From: Dehalococcoidia bacterium
GTDB lineage: Bacteria; Chloroflexota; Dehalococcoidia; Plut-88900
Assembly: GCA_965197645.1 (NCBI GenBank)
Contig: OZ240219.1
Span: forward strand, 705,157 to 769,156
Direction: 5' to 3'
DNA: 64,000 nucleotides
In this document: piece by piece, positions 5,863 through 63,997 of the stretch
Numbering within the stretch: position 1 is the first letter of the stretch
Layout: the number at the start of each line of letters is the position of its first letter
Made by a program: the position numbers and the translations under genes
The notes under the pieces: generated by a model
What the model was told of the DNA's origin: nothing
The model's input: only the letters and a program-made list of their open reading frames with translations
The model's database searches: none

Positions 5863-7269
5863 ATGACTATGTATAAGAAGTTCATGAGGCGCCGCACCGT
5901 TCTGGGTATCGTCGCTGTAGTCTTGGCGTTGATGCTCGTGGCGGCCGCTTGCGGTGAGGAGGCTGCACCCGAGCCGACCGAGGAGGTCATGGAAGAAGTG
6001 ATGGAGGAGGAGGTCGAAGAGGTGATGGAAGAGGACGTGATGGAGGAGGAGGCGATGGAGGAAGAGATGGTAGAAGAGGTGATGGAAGAGGACGTGATGG
6101 AGGAGGAGATGGTCGAGGAGGTAATGGAAGAGGACGTCATGGAGGAGGAGCCGGGCGATGGGATGGTCGGACTGCGAGGTCCCGACGAGTGGACAGTCGA
6201 GAACCCGGCTACGTTGGAAGAGGTGGAAGCCGAGCTGGAGAAGCTCCGAGGCGGCAGCCTTGTGTTCGTATCCTGGGGCGGCGCCTACCAGAGCGCCCAG
6301 CGCCAGGCCTTCATCGTGCCCTTCGTAGAGAAATTCGGCATCGAGGTGATCGAAGAGAGCGTTCCGACGATCGCCAAGCAGCGGGCCATGGCCGAGACGG
6401 GCAACATCACCTGGCACGTCATCGACTGGGGTACCCCCGCCGTTTACCAGATGAGCGCCACCGGCCACCTGGAAGAGCTGGACTTCAGCATCATCGACAA
6501 CCGCAAGTACATGGAGATCATCAAGTGCCCCTACTGCGGAGGGGGAAGCATAACCTGGTCGGAAGTGCTGGCCTACAACACCGACACCTACCCCGACGGC
6601 CTGCCCGACATGTCGGCCTACTACGACACCGAGAGATACCCCGGCCGGCGGGGCTGGGCCTACTACAGCGATCCCGAGGAGGTCTTCGTCCTCCTGGGTG
6701 ACAACCCCTCGCTCCTTGATACCATGGAGGGTCGCTCCAGCCTCTCCCGGTTGAGCGACGAACAGTTGGACCGCGCGTACGAGCTGTTCGAGCAGTACGG
6801 GGACCAGGTAACCATGTTCTGGCAGACCGGTTCCGACTGTCCTCAGCTGCTTATCAGCGGCGAGCTGGACATGTGCACCGCCTGGAATGGACGGATCTAC
6901 GACGCCGCCAGGGAGGGCGCGCCGATAGCCATCTGCTGGCACTGCGGTCACAAGCTGAACACCGGCGTCTTCGTAGTCCCGGACGGGCTGGCGGAGCAGG
7001 ACCCGGACCAGATGTACCTGGTGAACCTCTTCATCGCCTGGGTCGGCTCCGGTAAGATCAACGCCGACAATGCCAAGTTCATCAGCTACGGCCCCGTCAA
7101 CCTGGACGGTCTTCCCTACCTGGACGACCCGGCCTTCGACGAGGTCCGGGACGAGCTCCCCTCGTCATCGTCCAACATCCCCTACGCCATCCTGACCGAC
7201 GAGAAGTGGGCGGGTGAGACGGGCGACGCTCGCTATGAGCGCTACCTGGAATGGCAGCAGAACCTGTAG
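5863..7269 (+). CDS. extracellular solute-binding lipoprotein (PotD/polyamine-type ABC SBP family) with Met/Glu repeat tether
   Basis: Signal peptide plus lipobox (LVAAAC), RBS AGGAGG, 57-aa E/V/M/D low-complexity segment, then an SBP body (VSWGGAYQ...CTAWNGRIYDA). Confidence 0.85.
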   Translation: MTMYKKFMRRRTVLGIVAVVLALMLVAAACGEEAAPEPTEEVMEEVMEEEVEEVMEEDVMEEEAMEEEMVEEVMEEDVMEEEMVEEVMEEDVMEEEPGDGMVGLRGPDEWTVENPATLEEVEAELEKLRGGSLVFVSWGGAYQSAQRQAFIVPFVEKFGIEVIEESVPTIAKQRAMAETGNITWHVIDWGTPAVYQMSATGHLEELDFSIIDNRKYMEIIKCPYCGGGSITWSEVLAYNTDTYPDGLPDMSAYYDTERYPGRRGWAYYSDPEEVFVLLGDNPSLLDTMEGRSSLSRLSDEQLDRAYELFEQYGDQVTMFWQTGSDCPQLLISGELDMCTAWNGRIYDAAREGAPIAICWHCGHKLNTGVFVVPDGLAEQDPDQMYLVNLFIAWVGSGKINADNAKFISYGPVNLDGLPYLDDPAFDEVRDELPSSSSNIPYAILTDEKWAGETGDARYERYLEWQQNL

Positions 7270-17846: not shown

Positions 17847-17936
17847 TATCACCAAATATGAGGACCTGTCGAAAGGATGTTGGAACGACTCTTCCACGGG
17901 AGAGCGCTCCATCGAGCAACGGGTTAGGAGCAGACC

Positions 17937-18455
17937 ATGGAAGTGGGCGAGGTATTGGCCAACCTTGTAAGGCAAAACGGGGAAATGATAGAAACGGCGC
18001 TGGAGGGCCTCACCGAGGAGGAGCTGTACAAACAGCCCAACGACCAGTGCAACTCCATCGGGTGGCTGTTGTGGCATCTCGCACGGTCGGAGGACGACCT
18101 GGTCTCCCTGATGAACGAAGCGCCGGAGATCTGGACCGAGCAGGGAATAAATGAGAGGTTCGGCATGGGCGCCGAGGAGACGGGCGAGGGTGACGGACAC
18201 GAGAAGATATCCGCTTTCCGCGCCCCATCCACCGACGATCTCAAGTCCTACTGGCGCGCATCGGAGGCGAAGGCGATCAGCTACCTGGATTCGCTGCGAC
18301 CCGCCGATATGGACAGGGAGATGCCGGCGATGGTAGGCGAAGGCACAACGAACCTGTCCACGTACGCAGAGGACACGGTGAACGAGGCGCTGGTCCACGG
18401 CGGCCAGATCGCCTACGTGCGAGGCATGCTCAAGGGCATGGGCTGGTATTTCTAG
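17937..18455 (+). CDS. DinB-family (DinB_2-like) protein
   Basis: 172 aa. Contains NSIGWLLWHLARSEDD and ALVHGGQIAYVRG, typical of the DinB four-helix bundle family. Confidence 0.75.
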   Translation: MEVGEVLANLVRQNGEMIETALEGLTEEELYKQPNDQCNSIGWLLWHLARSEDDLVSLMNEAPEIWTEQGINERFGMGAEETGEGDGHEKISAFRAPSTDDLKSYWRASEAKAISYLDSLRPADMDREMPAMVGEGTTNLSTYAEDTVNEALVHGGQIAYVRGMLKGMGWYF

Positions 18456-27883: not shown

Positions 27884-28171
27884 ATGGCTCTGAGCAGAGA
27901 AGAGGTCGAGCACATAGCCCAGCTGGCACGGGTTGGGATGACCGAGGAGGACCTGGATGCCTTCGCCGGACAGCTTTCCCATATCCTAGAGCAGTTCGAG
28001 ATACTGGAAGAGGTGGACACCGATGACGTGCCTCCCTCCTCCCATCCCATCGACATCACCAGCGTCTTCAGGGACGATGAAGTTGCACCCTCCTACCCCA
28101 GGGAGGACGTACTGGCCAACGCACCCAGAGAGGACGACGGGTTCTTCCGGGTGAAATCGGTGCTGGGTTGA
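27884..28171 (+). CDS. gatC: Asp/Glu-tRNA amidotransferase subunit C
   Basis: 95 aa. Contains LSREEVEHIAQLARVGMTEEDL. Lies directly upstream of gatA. Confidence 0.9.
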   Translation: MALSREEVEHIAQLARVGMTEEDLDAFAGQLSHILEQFEILEEVDTDDVPPSSHPIDITSVFRDDEVAPSYPREDVLANAPREDDGFFRVKSVLG

Positions 28172-33690: not shown

Positions 33691-33860
33691 CTCTCAGACT
33701 CCCGGCAAAGGACCTTCACCCCCTCTCTCTTCTCTCATCTTATAGGTGCGGGGCCTCGCAGAGGGTTTGGGGGATGTGCCTCCGAAACACCAAAACGTCT
33801 CAGGGTGGGAGGGAGGGAGAAACTATCCCGGGGGGGGTGATTAGTGAGGACAAAAGGAAA

Positions 33861-34003
33861 GCCCCGAAGTCTTTTGGTCTAAGACCAACCCGATGGACTA
33901 AGTCGGGAACTTCGGGGCCCGGTGCCTGTTGGGCTTCCGTATACGGAACCCAAGGCATAGTCGTTTGCTAAATCCTTAGGTGCCGGCTACGTTACAAGCA
34001 CCT
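33861..34003. other. unassigned structured element (three-way junction plus two hairpins)
   Basis: 10-bp closing stem 33861-33870/33909-33918 encloses hairpins 33874-33888 and 33889-33907. Further hairpins lie at 33923-33955 and 33978-34003. No known RNA family was recognised. Confidence 0.3.
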
Positions 34004-34099
34004 CACTAGTCCGTTTATCATCTGTTTCCAATAGATCACCTCCTTTCTTAGTGTACCCAGAGATTACTACACAATTGAGCATGATGACAAGTACCACCT

Positions 34100-36792: not shown

Positions 36793-37299
36793 TTATCCTG
36801 TTCTGGCCTGGCGGGGTTCCAGCCGGCCGGTCTCTATTCGGTACTGCAGGTGCTCCATGACGTCTGCGGGTGGGGCGAGGCCGTTGGCCGTGCTCAGGAT
36901 GCACTGGTAGATGAGTACGCCGTCCTTGTTCATGAGGAAGACCGCCGGTTCGTTGAACTCTCCCTCGGTGCTCCACATGCACCCGAAGCTCCGAGCTACG
37001 GCGCCGTCGTGGTCTATGAGGACCGGGAAGGTCAGCCCCAGCCGGTCTCGCATGCGGCGGAGCCCTTCCGGGTCGTCGACGCTGATGGTGGCCCACTCCA
37101 CGCCCATCTCCTGGAACTTGGGGTACCACTCCTGCGCCACGCGCAGGTACTTATTGCAGCCGTCTCACCAGGAGCCTCGGCGAAAGACCAGGACCATCGG
37201 CGCCTTGCCCAGACGGTCGTAGAGATTGAACTCCTGCCCGTCGACGTCCTCAAGGGTGAAGTCGGGGACTTTTGTTTCCATATCGATAAGCGTAGTCAT
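36793..37299 (-). CDS. peroxiredoxin-like/redoxin-fold protein with in-frame TGA (candidate selenocysteine, U-x-x-C)
   Basis: ATG at 37299 follows AAGGAGG. 44 redoxin-like codons (KVPDFTLEDVDGQEF..APMVLVFRRGSW) are followed by TGA at 37165-37167. The sequence then continues DGCNKY... in the same frame as the tracked ORF 36793..37140. Confidence 0.6.
37131..37147 (-). promoter_or_regulatory. candidate SECIS-like hairpin
   Basis: The hairpin CCUGCGC-GUG-GCGCAGG starts 17 nt downstream of the in-frame UGA. It is short compared with canonical bacterial SECIS elements. Confidence 0.3.
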
Positions 37300-37312
37300 C
37301 GGGTAGACCTCC

Positions 37313-38305
37313 TTAGCTTGCTACCGCCACCATGGCGCCGACGGCCAGAGTGGCCAAGTCTGCCTGGCCCTCTTCCCAGGTCTCGCCGCGATCGGAGCTG
37401 ACGAATATGCGGCCGGCATCGGTGCCGGCATAAACCCGGTCCGAGTCGCAGGGGTCCCAGGTGTAGGCGATAACCATATCGTCATCGGATCCCAGGTCTA
37501 GTCTCCGCCAATCATCGCCGGAACTGGTCGATATGTATGCCTGAGCGCCCTGGCGACCGGCGTTGTTCGATACGGCCGTCAGCACCCGGGTGTGGTCGTC
37601 GGGGGCGCAGACCACGGGGACGGTATAGGTGCGCTCCAGGCCGGTGATCAGATGGTTCCAGCTGTCGCCGCCGTCGCCGCTGCGATAGGGGCCAGCCGCG
37701 GTGGCGGCGTAGACCGTGCCGGCATCGGTGTCGCTGATGTGAAGGGAGTGTATGTCGGGGTCGGTGCCGTGGAGCTGCTGCCAGGTCAGGCCGCCGTCCT
37801 TGGATCGGACCATGCCGCCGACCTCGATGCCGGTGAAGATCTGGTCCGGGTCGTGAGGAGAGAGCTTTATCTCCCGGACGTGGGACAGCCGCTCGCCGTG
37901 GAAACCCCAACCCGTCGACTCGGGGACCTCCTGGTAGCTGCTGATCTCCTCCCAGCTATCCCCACCGTCGGCGGAGCGGAACAGGGCCGCCGGTTCGCTG
38001 CCGGCGTAGACCAGGTCCGGGTTGCCGGGGTGGACGGCGACGCTGTGGGCGTAAGCCGTGGGGTAGCCGTCGAGGCGGCGCCAGGCGGCACCACCGTCGT
38101 CGGTGCGCCACACTCCCGATTCGTAGGCCGCCAGGTAGGCCCGCTCCGGCGAGCTCTGGGAGTGGGCGAAGCGGGCCGCTGCATGGTCCAGGGTCATCAC
38201 GCTCCGCTTCGTCCAAGCGCCGTTGCCGTCGGACGAAACCAGGGTGCCTATTCCGTCGTGCATGCCCACGTATAACTTGGTACGGGTCCCGTTGCCAGTA
38301 GCCAT
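37313..38305 (-). CDS. BNR/Asp-box repeat beta-propeller protein (sialidase-fold / Ycf48-like)
   Basis: Six S-x-D-x-G-x-x-W boxes are present (TDDGGAAW, SADGGDSW, SKDGGLTW, SGDGGDSW, SSGDDW, SSDRGETW). The start is set at MATGNG after AGGGGAG. Confidence 0.75.
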   Translation of the reverse strand: MATGNGTRTKLYVGMHDGIGTLVSSDGNGAWTKRSVMTLDHAAARFAHSQSSPERAYLAAYESGVWRTDDGGAAWRRLDGYPTAYAHSVAVHPGNPDLVYAGSEPAALFRSADGGDSWEEISSYQEVPESTGWGFHGERLSHVREIKLSPHDPDQIFTGIEVGGMVRSKDGGLTWQQLHGTDPDIHSLHISDTDAGTVYAATAAGPYRSGDGGDSWNHLITGLERTYTVPVVCAPDDHTRVLTAVSNNAGRQGAQAYISTSSGDDWRRLDLGSDDDMVIAYTWDPCDSDRVYAGTDAGRIFVSSDRGETWEEGQADLATLAVGAMVAVAS

Positions 38306-61653: not shown

Positions 61654-62910
61654 GTGACCGGCATCAACATATCGAACTCTCAAGCAAGGCGCATAGCCGT
61701 CTTCAAGCAGCGCCTCACCGGCCCTCGGCCACCGTCCACCGCCGACGCCATCGTGGACCTGATTCGAGACCTGGGTTGCGTTCAGATCGACCCTATTCGC
61801 GCCGTCGAGCGGACCCAGCACCTGGTCCTATGGAGCCGGTTGAGCGGCTACGATCCTTCGCAACTGGACGTAGCTCTTTGGGAGGAGCGGCGCCTGTTCG
61901 AGTACTGGGCCCACGCCGCGTCCATAGTCCTCACGGAAAATTACCAGATACACAGGTCCCAGATGGAGGCTAACCGCGTCAGCGACCGTGCATGGGAAAA
62001 AGAGAACCGGAACTGGATGGAGGGTCAGGAGGAGCTCCGTGAGCGGGTAATCGAATCTCTGAGAGAGAGTCCGCCGCTGTCGGCAGCCCAGCTCAGCACG
62101 CCCGATTCGACGAAGCGCCGCAGCGAGCCGGGTGGCTGGAGCATGGGTTCCGACGTCAGCCGGTTGCTGTCTACTCTCTGGACCCGGGGCGAGCTGATGA
62201 TCGCAGGGCGCAACAATCAGACTCGCCTGTGGACGCTGCCGGACCGGTGGCTGCCCGATTGGGTCCCGGATGGCGACCTATCGGAGCGGGAAGTGGCCCG
62301 TCGTGCGGTGCAGATATCGCTGAAGGCGCTGGGCGTCGGAACACCGGTACACATACGAAACCACTTCGTCCGCGCCCACTACCCGGGCCTCAACGAGGTG
62401 CTGGCCGAGCTGGTGAGCGAAGGCCAGGTGAGACCAGTGACTGTAGAGGATGACGATGGCACCTGGTCGGGCGACTGGTTCATTCACGCTGACGACGTCC
62501 CGCTGCTGGAACGGCTGGGCGAGGAGTGGGAACCAAGGACCACTCTGCTATCGCCCTTCGACAACCTGGTATGCGACCGCTCCCGGACGCTGGCCATGTG
62601 GGACTTCGATTTCACCATCGAGATATACCTTCCCAAATCGCAGCGCCGGTACGGATACTACGTGATGCCCATTCTTCACGGAGACCGGCTGGTCGGACGG
62701 ATCGATCCCAAGATGGACCGGTCGACGGGCACGCTCATCGTCAATGCCGTCTACGCAGAGCCCAGCACCCGAGAAGACGTCGGGATAGCCGAGGGCACGG
62801 CCCGCTCAATCGAAGACTTGGGGAGGTTCCTGGGCGCCCGTCGCGTGAAGTACGGGCGGCGTAAGCCTCCAGGGTGGCGTCCGTACCTGCGCACGGGAAA
62901 GCTCCCTTGA
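61654..62910 (+). CDS. winged-helix DUF1006 / YcaQ-family (AlkZ-like) DNA glycosylase-like protein
   Basis: Contains GCVQIDPI, EYWAHAAS and RRYGYYVMPILHGDRLVGRIDPK, which are family hallmarks as I recall them. Confidence 0.75.
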   Translation: MTGINISNSQARRIAVFKQRLTGPRPPSTADAIVDLIRDLGCVQIDPIRAVERTQHLVLWSRLSGYDPSQLDVALWEERRLFEYWAHAASIVLTENYQIHRSQMEANRVSDRAWEKENRNWMEGQEELRERVIESLRESPPLSAAQLSTPDSTKRRSEPGGWSMGSDVSRLLSTLWTRGELMIAGRNNQTRLWTLPDRWLPDWVPDGDLSEREVARRAVQISLKALGVGTPVHIRNHFVRAHYPGLNEVLAELVSEGQVRPVTVEDDDGTWSGDWFIHADDVPLLERLGEEWEPRTTLLSPFDNLVCDRSRTLAMWDFDFTIEIYLPKSQRRYGYYVMPILHGDRLVGRIDPKMDRSTGTLIVNAVYAEPSTREDVGIAEGTARSIEDLGRFLGARRVKYGRRKPPGWRPYLRTGKLP

Positions 62911-62914
62911 ATGA

Positions 62915-63335
62915 AAGCCTGGGCTGAGATTGCCACGCCCCGACTTTGTCGGGTCTCGTAATGACGAGGTGGTCGTTGCGAGCGAGGGGAGAGTTAGCCC
63001 TGGGGGGTGGAAGAGGGCGAAGCAATCTGGGTCGGAGGGGTATATGCCCCTGCCAGTCAACAGCCAGGCCTGGCTAGATTGCCACGCCCCGACTTCGTCG
63101 GGTCTCGCAATGACGAGGTGGTCGTTGCGAGCAACGGGGGAGGTCGTCTTGAGGGAGTCGAAGGGAGCGAAGCAATCTGGGCCGGGGGGGTATATGCCCC
63201 TGCCAGTCAACAGCCAGACCTGACTAGATTGCCACGCCCCGACTTCGTCGGGTCTCGCAATGACGAGGTGGTCGTTGCGAGCGATGGGAGAGTTAGCCCT
63301 GGGGGTGGAAGAGGGCGAAGCAATGTGGGCCGGAG
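62915..63335 (+). repeat. family A composite repeat, 3 tandem units, short-loop variant (period 148/150 bp)
   Basis: Cores lie at 62928, 63076 and 63226. Units are joined by the short hairpin ctcgcaatgacg-aggtg-gtcgttgcgag. Confidence 0.9.
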
Positions 63336-63358
63336 GAAGGGAAGGCACGCCTCATTTT

Positions 63359-63997
63359 TCAGACGGGCGACAGTCCCGTTTCGGAGATCTCCAGCACGTC
63401 GCCTTTGAAGTGATCGATGAACCAGCGGTCGTGGGAGGCGGCTATCACCGGGCCGGGCCACTCAGCAACCGTAGCTTCGAACGCTTCGAGGACATCCAGG
63501 CTCAGGTAGTTGGTAGGCTCGTCCAGGATCAGCAGGTTGGGCTCCGAGGCGATGAGGCGAGCGATCTCCACCTTTCTCAGCTGACCAACGCTCAGCTGGC
63601 GCAGGGTCTTGCCGATGTCGTCTTCCCGGAACAGGCCGTATCGCAGCAGGTCAAAAGTGAAGTCCCCCTGGTATCCCACCAGGCCTTCCCGGTACGCTTC
63701 CAGCACGGTACGTCCAAGGTCGTCGAACAGGGACTCCTGGGGCAGGTATCCCGCCCGCGCTCTCGGTGCGAAGGCGATCTCTCCCTCGTCCGGCGCTTCG
63801 TCGCCGGCCAGGATGCGCAGCAGGGTGGTCTTACCGGACCCGTTGGGGCCGACTATCGCGACCCTGGAATCGCGATTCAATGTGAGGTCCAGGTCGTTCA
63901 AGATACAATTAGAGCCGTACCGCTTGGTCACCCCGGTAGCCTTGGCGACGATGGCAGACCGGATGGATAGCGGCGTCAGCCCGGCCGTAACTTTCAA
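63359..63997 (-). CDS. ABC-F type ATP-binding cassette protein, C-terminal ABC domain (5' end outside window)
   Basis: Contains Walker A GPNGSGKTT, signature LSVGQ and Walker B LLILDEPTN. The frame is open to the window edge. Confidence 0.85.
   Translation of the reverse strand: MKVTAGLTPLSIRSAIVAKATGVTKRYGSNCILNDLDLTLNRDSRVAIVGPNGSGKTTLLRILAGDEAPDEGEIAFAPRARAGYLPQESLFDDLGRTVLEAYREGLVGYQGDFTFDLLRYGLFREDDIGKTLRQLSVGQLRKVEIARLIASEPNLLILDEPTNYLSLDVLEAFEATVAEWPGPVIAASHDRWFIDHFKGDVLEISETGLSPV

Follow-up and report, generated by a model that had tools for sequence, protein, structure and literature searches.

The closest described counterparts of the gene considered here are the peroxiredoxin-like (Prx-like) selenoproteins of bacteria, in which an AhpC-TSA domain carries selenocysteine (Sec, U) as the first residue of a U-x-x-C motif, in place of the Cys of abundant C-x-x-C homologues, with a bacterial selenocysteine insertion sequence (bSECIS) just downstream of the UGA. 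These proteins were predicted by Kryukov, Zhang and Gladyshev (PMC2398784; PMC1794560). The 2006 survey of bacterial genomes listed 8 sequences of a Prx-like thiol:disulfide oxidoreductase (PMC1794560, Table 1), and the Global Ocean Sampling (GOS) metagenome contained 225 Sec sequences and 2,740 Cys homologues of Prx-like 1 (PMC2398784, Table 2). In 2026 the Prx-like family was still "predicted with high confidence" (PMC13188914, Table 1), and the function of Prx-like 1 is uncharacterised and presumed to be redox. Here we describe a gene on the minus strand (36793-37299) of a 64,000-nucleotide stretch of a Dehalococcoidia bacterium genome (assembly GCA_965197645.1, contig OZ240219.1, positions 705,157 to 769,156; hereafter the window), in which an in-frame TGA very probably specifies Sec.

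The window gene fits the Prx-like 1, or Prx-like thiol:disulfide oxidoreductase, family of selenoproteins, which has been known for about twenty years. Membership was judged by an operational definition, namely a PF00578 domain together with U-x-x-C (PMC2398784, Table 2; PMC13188914, Table 1); the predicted product has both the PF00578 domain and the motif W-U-D-G-C. The original prediction for this locus, made from the DNA alone, had held that the family is not new, and the literature bears this out (PMC2398784; PMC1794560; PMC13188914). The window motif, W-U-D-G-C-N, differs from the commoner W-U-P-x-C, which is found in two Sec-type relatives (L009 and L010 below) that appear to link the window clade to the broader group. 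Moreover, the only named relative of the window clade is a member of the Chloroflexota, whereas the original members came from Deltaproteobacteria and marine plankton. Selenoproteins have been documented in Chloroflexi (PMC1794560, Table 2), as has a tRNA-Sec of the unusual 8/4 type (PMC5389517).

One reading frame across an in-frame UGA

On the minus strand, an ATG at 37299-37297 opens a frame of 44 sense codons (MTTLIDMETKVPDFTLEDVDGQEFNLYDRLGKAPMVLVFRRGSW), which is followed by an in-frame TGA at 37167-37165 and then by 123 further codons in the same frame (DGCNKYLRVAQEWYPKF...), ending at a TAA at 36795-36793. The sequence thus agrees with the arrangement originally proposed, in which the ATG, the 44 codons and the TGA share the frame of the 115-residue open reading frame (ORF) tracked in the window. 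The start is preceded by a Shine-Dalgarno sequence, AAGGAGG, at a distance that we count as 8 nt rather than the 9 nt first given. This sequence (37314-37308) overlaps the stop codon of the upstream BNR-repeat gene (TAA, 37315-37313), so that the minus-strand context of the start reads ...GCAAGC-TAA-GGAGG-TCTACCCG-ATG. The features of the gene are as follows.

36793 to 37299, minus strand: complete coding sequence of 168 codons, including the putative Sec45; based on translation, Pfam, conservation in orthologues and the ratio of nonsynonymous to synonymous differences (pN/pS)
37308 to 37314, minus strand: Shine-Dalgarno sequence AAGGAGG, 8 nt before the ATG at 37299; read from the sequence
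37165 to 37167, minus strand: in-frame UGA, proposed Sec codon (Sec45), first position of W-U-D-G-C; based on the conserved column and alignment with Cys
37156 to 37158, minus strand: Cys48 codon TGC, predicted resolving partner in U-x-x-C, at the position of the peroxidatic Cys of peroxiredoxins; invariant in orthologues, aligned with the peroxidatic Cys of BCP 2cx3
36946 to 36948, minus strand: Pro118 codon in the conserved segment EP-AVF; aligned with the ResA cis-Pro and the catalytic Arg position of peroxiredoxins, invariant in orthologues
37131 to 37147, minus strand: putative bSECIS upper stem-loop, 7-bp CCUGCGC/GCGCAGG with the loop GUG at 37138-37140; based on the bSECIS criteria and on presence in Sec-type loci

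With U written as C, the read-through protein matches Pfam AhpC-TSA (PF00578) over positions 3-123/124, with an E-value of 1.2e-26 and a score of 93.5 bits against a cut-off of 26. The tracked 115-residue ORF, by comparison, matches positions 49-123 only. Since it misses the first part of the profile, the 44 upstream codons would constitute the N-terminal third of the domain, and the extension of the match supports the view, already put forward in the original prediction, that they encode the missing N-terminal strands of a redoxin/AhpC-TSA fold. The GTG at which the tracked ORF is said to start (37140-37138) has no Shine-Dalgarno sequence and coincides with the apical loop of the hairpin. A contig of 1,016,547 bp (ENA ERZ25072670) differs from the window by one mismatch over the 507-nt gene, and the same gene is also found on contigs of 3.15 and 3.21 Mb, so that a near-complete genome is on record. 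We conclude that the locus is best read as one gene of 168 codons that gene callers have split in two. Mis-annotation by default had been anticipated, and the public calls indeed split or shorten the gene.

Conservation of the UGA at a catalytic Cys position

A TGA occupies the same column in eight Sec-type loci (L001, L002, L003, L004, L005, L006, L009 and L010), whose protein identities range from 98% down to about 40% and which include a Chloroflexota metagenome-assembled genome (MAG; JADFJI010000073, 68% identity) with the same TGA arrangement. When 5.8 billion proteins were searched with the read-through sequence, only four relatives were obtained, each of 103-115 residues and covering the C-terminal 60-68% of the query. 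Translation of the junction on the contigs of these four relatives revealed a TGA at the same codon in each, within the conserved peptide VFRRGGW-TGA-DGCN(K/D)YL. The next relatives, at 40-42% identity, also keep the TGA in this column, in the contexts FYRGAW-TGA-PVCEVYL (L009) and FIRGEW-TGA-PPCNEYL (L010). When 1.84 billion representatives were searched exhaustively by HMMER with the 123 residues after the UGA as query, one 50%-identity cluster scored below 1e-30 and four clusters below 1e-10, and the hits included roughly 60 more proteins of about 100-115 residues, again truncated; the clade of the window gene appears from these searches to be small and divergent. Sequence collections were also scanned with the protein alignment; as the U position was back-translated as Cys (TGY), these scans were biased against Sec loci, and they gave one new orthologue (L006), one duplicate (L007, identical with L003) and one distant Cys form (L008). 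Finally, four samples that were assembled independently (L014-L017) also contain this TGA; their sequences are near-identical except for one that has diverged by 3.4%.

Comparison with three orthologues gave pN/pS values of 0.31-0.42 for 36 codons before the TGA and of 0.38-0.40 for 100 codons after it. The similarity of these values indicates that both sides belong to a single coding unit and are constrained alike. The original prediction would have fallen if homologues had shown the 44 upstream codons to be no part of the protein; these codons are instead conserved in orthologues and constrained to the same degree as the downstream part.

In alignments with the ResA structures 4nmu (E-value 4.4e-14) and 1st9, the residue encoded by the TGA, position 45, corresponds to the first Cys of the W-C-x-x-C motif. 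Cys-type relatives have a Cys at this position, as in P0016 (FYRGEWCHFCNLYL), P0017 (FHRGDWCSWCNGQL), P0023 (FYRGDFCPACNRYL) and also P0008. The placement of the TGA at the first Cys of W-C-x-x-C, as first proposed, is therefore supported by alignment with both the solved structures and the Cys-type relatives.

A separate observation concerns P0008 (259 residues) and another relative, P0010 (326 residues). Both look secreted and contain one full CxxC Prx-like domain, and in both the called product breaks off at ...VVLVFYRAFW, the point at which a second domain with Sec would be interrupted by its TGA. Judged by these end points, P0008 and P0010 probably have two domains in tandem and a Sec that annotation has missed.

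A downstream hairpin with the properties of a bSECIS

The 7-bp GC hairpin that had been noted at 37131-37147 is present as described. It has the sequence CCUGCGC-GUG-GCGCAGG, starts 17 nt after the UGA and has a UGA-to-loop distance of 24 nt and a minimum free energy (MFE) of -11.3 kcal/mol. According to a 2026 review, a bSECIS has an apical loop of 3-9 nt with at least one G in its first two positions, an upper stem of 4-16 bp, a UGA-to-loop distance of 16-37 nt and an MFE of -7.5 kcal/mol or lower (PMC13188914, Fig. 2). The hairpins of all eight Sec-type loci fall within every one of these limits and lie at the same offset, at nt 21-37 after the UGA, with stems of 6-7 bp, spacings of 23-24 nt, MFE values from -7.6 to -11.3 kcal/mol and the apical loops GUG, GGC, GGGCG, GUC or AGGUG.

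The Cys-type loci provide a control. Two of them, L011 (UACCUCCACUCCAUCCAGG) and L013 (UACCUGCACUCCCUACAGG), encode the same peptide, YLHSxQE, with codons that are unable to form the stem. To us, this contrast between Sec and Cys forms constitutes a stronger argument for a putative SECIS than covariation does. Two stem pairs show compensatory changes (G-C to A-U and C-G to A-U) at an amino-acid cost of R/H and A/V, and the support that covariation may lend to a SECIS is modest, because only six sequences enter the comparison, most pairs are invariant, a shuffle control is not decisive and the fold of the single sequence is unexceptional, as detailed below. Of the SECIS models, which the original prediction had suggested as a check, the published bSECIS criteria agree with the hairpin, and no Rfam model matches it. 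A conserved lower stem starting 4 nt after the UGA, suggested by RNAalifold, was rejected, being broken in the window and not kept in L009 or L010.

Genetic code and Sec machinery

Among 20 Pfam-supported genes of the window, 11 end in TAG, five in TAA and four in TGA (gidA, tsaD, asd and an amine oxidase gene). UGA is not reassigned in the window and the code is normal, as had been stated on the strength of tsaD (1105-1107) and gatC (28169-28171); three further Pfam-supported genes are now added to tsaD. TGA is usually the dominant stop codon of GC-rich bacteria, and for a window of 61.5% GC the four TGA stops out of 20 look rare. A scan of the window for TGA codons beside Cys with both flanks open gave 13 sites besides the target; the six with the longest open flanks were discarded as Sec candidates, as their translations look like off-frame noise.

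From the proposed recoding we infer that selA, selB, selD and selC are present in the genome. ARAGORN found only a tRNA-Glu, and no tRNA-Sec, in the window and no tRNA in the fetched loci, and Pfam scans of the 30 largest ORFs of the window, like the public calls covering its central 20 kb, revealed no SelA, SelB or SelD domain. However, the window represents about 2% of a genome of roughly 3.2 Mb, so the absence of Sec machinery from it is uninformative rather than negative.

Weighing of the explanations

Site-specific recoding of the UGA at 37165-37167 as Sec, driven by a bSECIS, has a high probability in our judgement. It is what the original prediction proposed, and it is favoured by the conservation of the TGA, the alignment with Cys, the equal constraint on either side, the specificity of the hairpin for Sec forms and the unreassigned code. 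A number of observations nevertheless weigh against it, among them the machinery results just given. The covariation of the stem is matched or exceeded in 49 of 500 column shuffles (6 distinct sequences), and the stem varies at two of its seven pairs, the other five (CCUGC/GCAGG) being invariant, in part because they fall in Tyr-Leu and Gln-Glu/Asp codons; the outer CUG...CAG of the stem encodes Leu and Gln, residues that are kept in the Cys forms as well. The 76-nt fold after the UGA is not thermodynamically exceptional (z = -0.14 in DNA of 61.5% GC), and in such a GC-rich context thermodynamics alone says nothing, so the significance of the hairpin derives from the comparative evidence only. 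Rfam searches of the whole window at gathering thresholds, and of 37000-37320 at E-values of up to 10, gave chance matches only and no match of SECIS type. The NCBIfam selenoprotein models all score below their cut-offs: WAxxUGC_long at 37.7 against 300 bits, SelL_rel_redox at 33.7 against 120 and deiodinase_rel at 22.5 against 250. Lastly, translation of the frame and insertion of Sec are predictions from sequence.

That last point leaves some room for a UGA that is read through with a residue other than Sec, either Cys or Trp via a near-cognate tRNA, or Cys via the Sec machinery under selenium limitation, and the searches of the window and the fetched loci, which yielded no Sec machinery, point the same way. 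We nevertheless regard this as improbable, for the spacing, the loop size and the G-first loop of the hairpin agree in 8/8 loci with a SelB-dependent bSECIS, and the UGA stands at the catalytic Cys position, the typical place of Sec/Cys pairs in the known family (PMC2398784, Table 2). Were Cys the intended residue, some loci should have TGC or TGT, and none of the eight does. It is very improbable that the gene is truly split or truncated, with translation ending at the UGA and a C-terminal product made separately from the GTG at 37140 or a later start. Public pipelines do call a split gene (a "peroxiredoxin" of 115 residues at JGI, 44 plus 102 residues at ENA), and the GTG is there. However, it lies inside the hairpin loop without a Shine-Dalgarno sequence, the C-terminal piece (Pfam 49-123 only) would be missing the initial beta-strands and the entire redox motif, and relatives as distant as about 40% identity keep both the frame relation and the TGA, purifying selection being equal on either side. 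The called lengths, moreover, vary with the pipeline (102, 103, 104, 105, 111, 115 and 117 residues), and this disagreement between the callers' starts implies that there is no conserved internal start. A lone in-frame stop in one sequence would resemble a nonsense mutation, but the probability that the gene is a pseudogene, or that a TGC or TGT was turned into TGA by faulty sequencing or assembly, is minimal. The four independent assemblies from one population, including the one with 3.4% divergence, have the identical TGA, as do seven more loci with identities as low as about 40%, in which the frame is not otherwise disrupted and pN/pS is about 0.3-0.4 on both sides. Both error and pseudogene are thereby excluded for practical purposes, and we continue with Sec at position 45 as the preferred explanation.

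Fold, active site and related proteins

As close homologues are available in the PDB, we take the fold as defined. The classical peroxiredoxin signature, P-x-x-x-T/S-x-x-Cp (Cp being the peroxidatic Cys) with a conserved Arg, is not present in the window protein. In the alignment with BCP 2cx3, the peroxiredoxin Pro corresponds to Arg41, the Ser/Thr to U45, the peroxidatic Cys to Cys48 and the catalytic Arg to Pro118. The W-C-x-x-C site and the cis-Pro loop of the ResA type, on the other hand, have direct counterparts in W44-U45-D-G-C48 and Pro118. Lacking the peroxiredoxin Pro, Thr and Arg and having a thioredoxin-type cis-Pro, the protein is more plausibly a U-x-x-C oxidoreductase than a true peroxiredoxin; that is, we predict a thioredoxin-type U-x-x-C thiol-disulfide oxidoreductase on an AhpC-TSA scaffold, which mechanistically would be no peroxiredoxin. 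The initial description of the gene as peroxiredoxin-like is accordingly apt with respect to the AhpC-TSA fold but not to the chemistry, as the peroxiredoxin catalytic residues are missing and the peroxidatic Cys corresponds to C48 and not to U45. The AhpC-TSA domain begins at residue 9 and the N-terminus contains no hydrophobic segment, which leaves no signal peptide or membrane anchor, and the protein should be cytoplasmic, unlike ResA and TlpA. An additional Cys, Cys107 in GCMWS (36979-36981, minus strand), is invariant in the window gene and three aligned orthologues, whereas L009 and L010 lack it; a role as a third redox residue, specific to the clade, is conceivable.

The best matches among solved structures are ResA, TlpA and DsbE (CcmG) (PDB 4nmu, 1st9 and 1jfu; E-values from 4e-14 to 1e-7), with which the window protein shares the W-C-x-x-C position, the cis-Pro loop and a thioredoxin-like fold with an insertion. 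It differs from them in having no signal peptide or anchor and in the predicted replacement of the nucleophilic Cys by Sec, and there are no cytochrome c maturation genes near the window gene. True peroxiredoxins belong to the same Pfam family and have the same fold, BCP 2cx3 being aligned over 134 residues with an E-value of 3.8e-12. In Sec-type peroxiredoxins (TxxU), however, Sec is the peroxidatic residue, whereas the window protein has Cys48 there and its proposed Sec three residues earlier. SelL, SelL-related proteins (NF040769) and PRX-like2 (cd02970) resemble the window protein in their Prx-like thioredoxin fold, their CxxC-type motif and the possibility of Sec at the redox positions, but SelL itself has UxxU. 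In the CDD family cd02970, according to its description, the second Cys of CxxC corresponds to the peroxidatic Cys of peroxiredoxins and the other catalytic residues are missing, a pattern with which the window protein agrees.

The NCBIfam thiol-disulfide models score below their cut-offs (ResA 64.8 against 170 bits, DsbE 16.7 against 123 and TlpA 16.1 against 230), and the same holds for the peroxiredoxin models (BCP 40.7 against 140, PrxQ 29.1 against 260, PrxU 27.8 against 270 and AhpC 24.1 against 272). That no NCBIfam model reaches its cut-off is probably why automated pipelines split the gene. The clade is probably centred on Chloroflexota. A further-reaching proposal is that it represents a distinct, obligately Sec-containing, Chloroflexota-centred subfamily of cytoplasmic proteins, marked by W-U-D-G-C-N and the invariant Cys107, missed by curated models and mis-split by all public annotation, in which Cys107 could provide a Sec-Cys-Cys relay unlike the two-residue chemistry of Prx-like 1. 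We consider this proposal speculative and rather unlikely to hold as a whole.

Proposed mechanism

Combining the established bacterial Sec pathway with the redox chemistry of the family, we infer the following sequence of events. With the UGA in the A site of the ribosome, the hairpin at 37131-37147, with its G-first apical loop, would recruit SelB-GTP-Sec-tRNA(Sec), and SelB would deliver Sec to the UGA located 24 nt upstream of the hairpin loop. In the folded protein, Sec45 would take the nucleophilic N-terminal position of W-U-D-G-C, at the start of helix alpha-1, from where it could attack a disulfide in the substrate or an oxidised thiol. Cys48 would then resolve the intermediate to give an intramolecular selenenylsulfide, which a reductant of the thioredoxin type or similar would presumably re-reduce.

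Implications

The locus is of value primarily for annotation, as the public copies are called as 44 residues plus 102-115 residues, one of them under the name "peroxiredoxin", so that the active site is missed and the selenoprotein remains hidden. It also predicts a full Sec-insertion machinery, and probably more selenoproteins, in the genome of roughly 3.2 Mb, the organism then being selenium-dependent. With it the known family gains a small divergent clade, along with eight matched Sec/SECIS examples and Cys-form controls for them, which could help to train SECIS and selenoprotein predictors for GC-rich genomes. Existing knowledge of Sec biology is left unchanged.

Genomic neighbourhood and other features of the window

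The neighbours of the gene differ from locus to locus, with a BNR protein, an epimerase and PTE in the window, a methyltransferase and a sulfatase in L001, TenA in L009, and NIPSNAP and a hydantoinase in L010. As they are unlike in every locus, no functional partner can be inferred from them. On the 129-kb contig of L001, genes for a 1-Cys peroxiredoxin (AhpC-TSA plus 1-cysPrx_C; 6528-7187, minus strand) and for MsrB (SelR; 17850-18245, plus strand) lie within 10 kb.

Elsewhere in the window, the region 33853-34054 on the minus strand matches Rfam RF02471 (Ms_IGR-5, "Actinobacteria sRNA") with 51.3 bits against a gathering threshold of 45. The match is full-length (model positions 1-184) and lies between tatA and a GIY-YIG gene, in the gap that separates them; at its start stands the anti-16S-like sequence AAGGAGGUGAUC, and it ends in a terminator-like hairpin followed by a U-run. 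A match to this actinobacterial RNA is unexpected for a member of the Chloroflexota. Also adjoining tatA, at about 32.7-33.0 kb (13797-14054 in L014), is an 85-residue fragment of an rve_3 integrase core, which is probably an insertion-sequence remnant. Near the end of the window, three tandem copies of a unit of roughly 150 nt, 88-96% identical, occupy 62927-63336 on the plus strand, between a gene for an AlkZ-like glycosylase (61654-62910) and an ORF at 63260-63970, and each unit contains the short GC hairpins CCCCGACTTCGTCGGG and TCGCAATGACGAGGTGGTCGTTGCGA.

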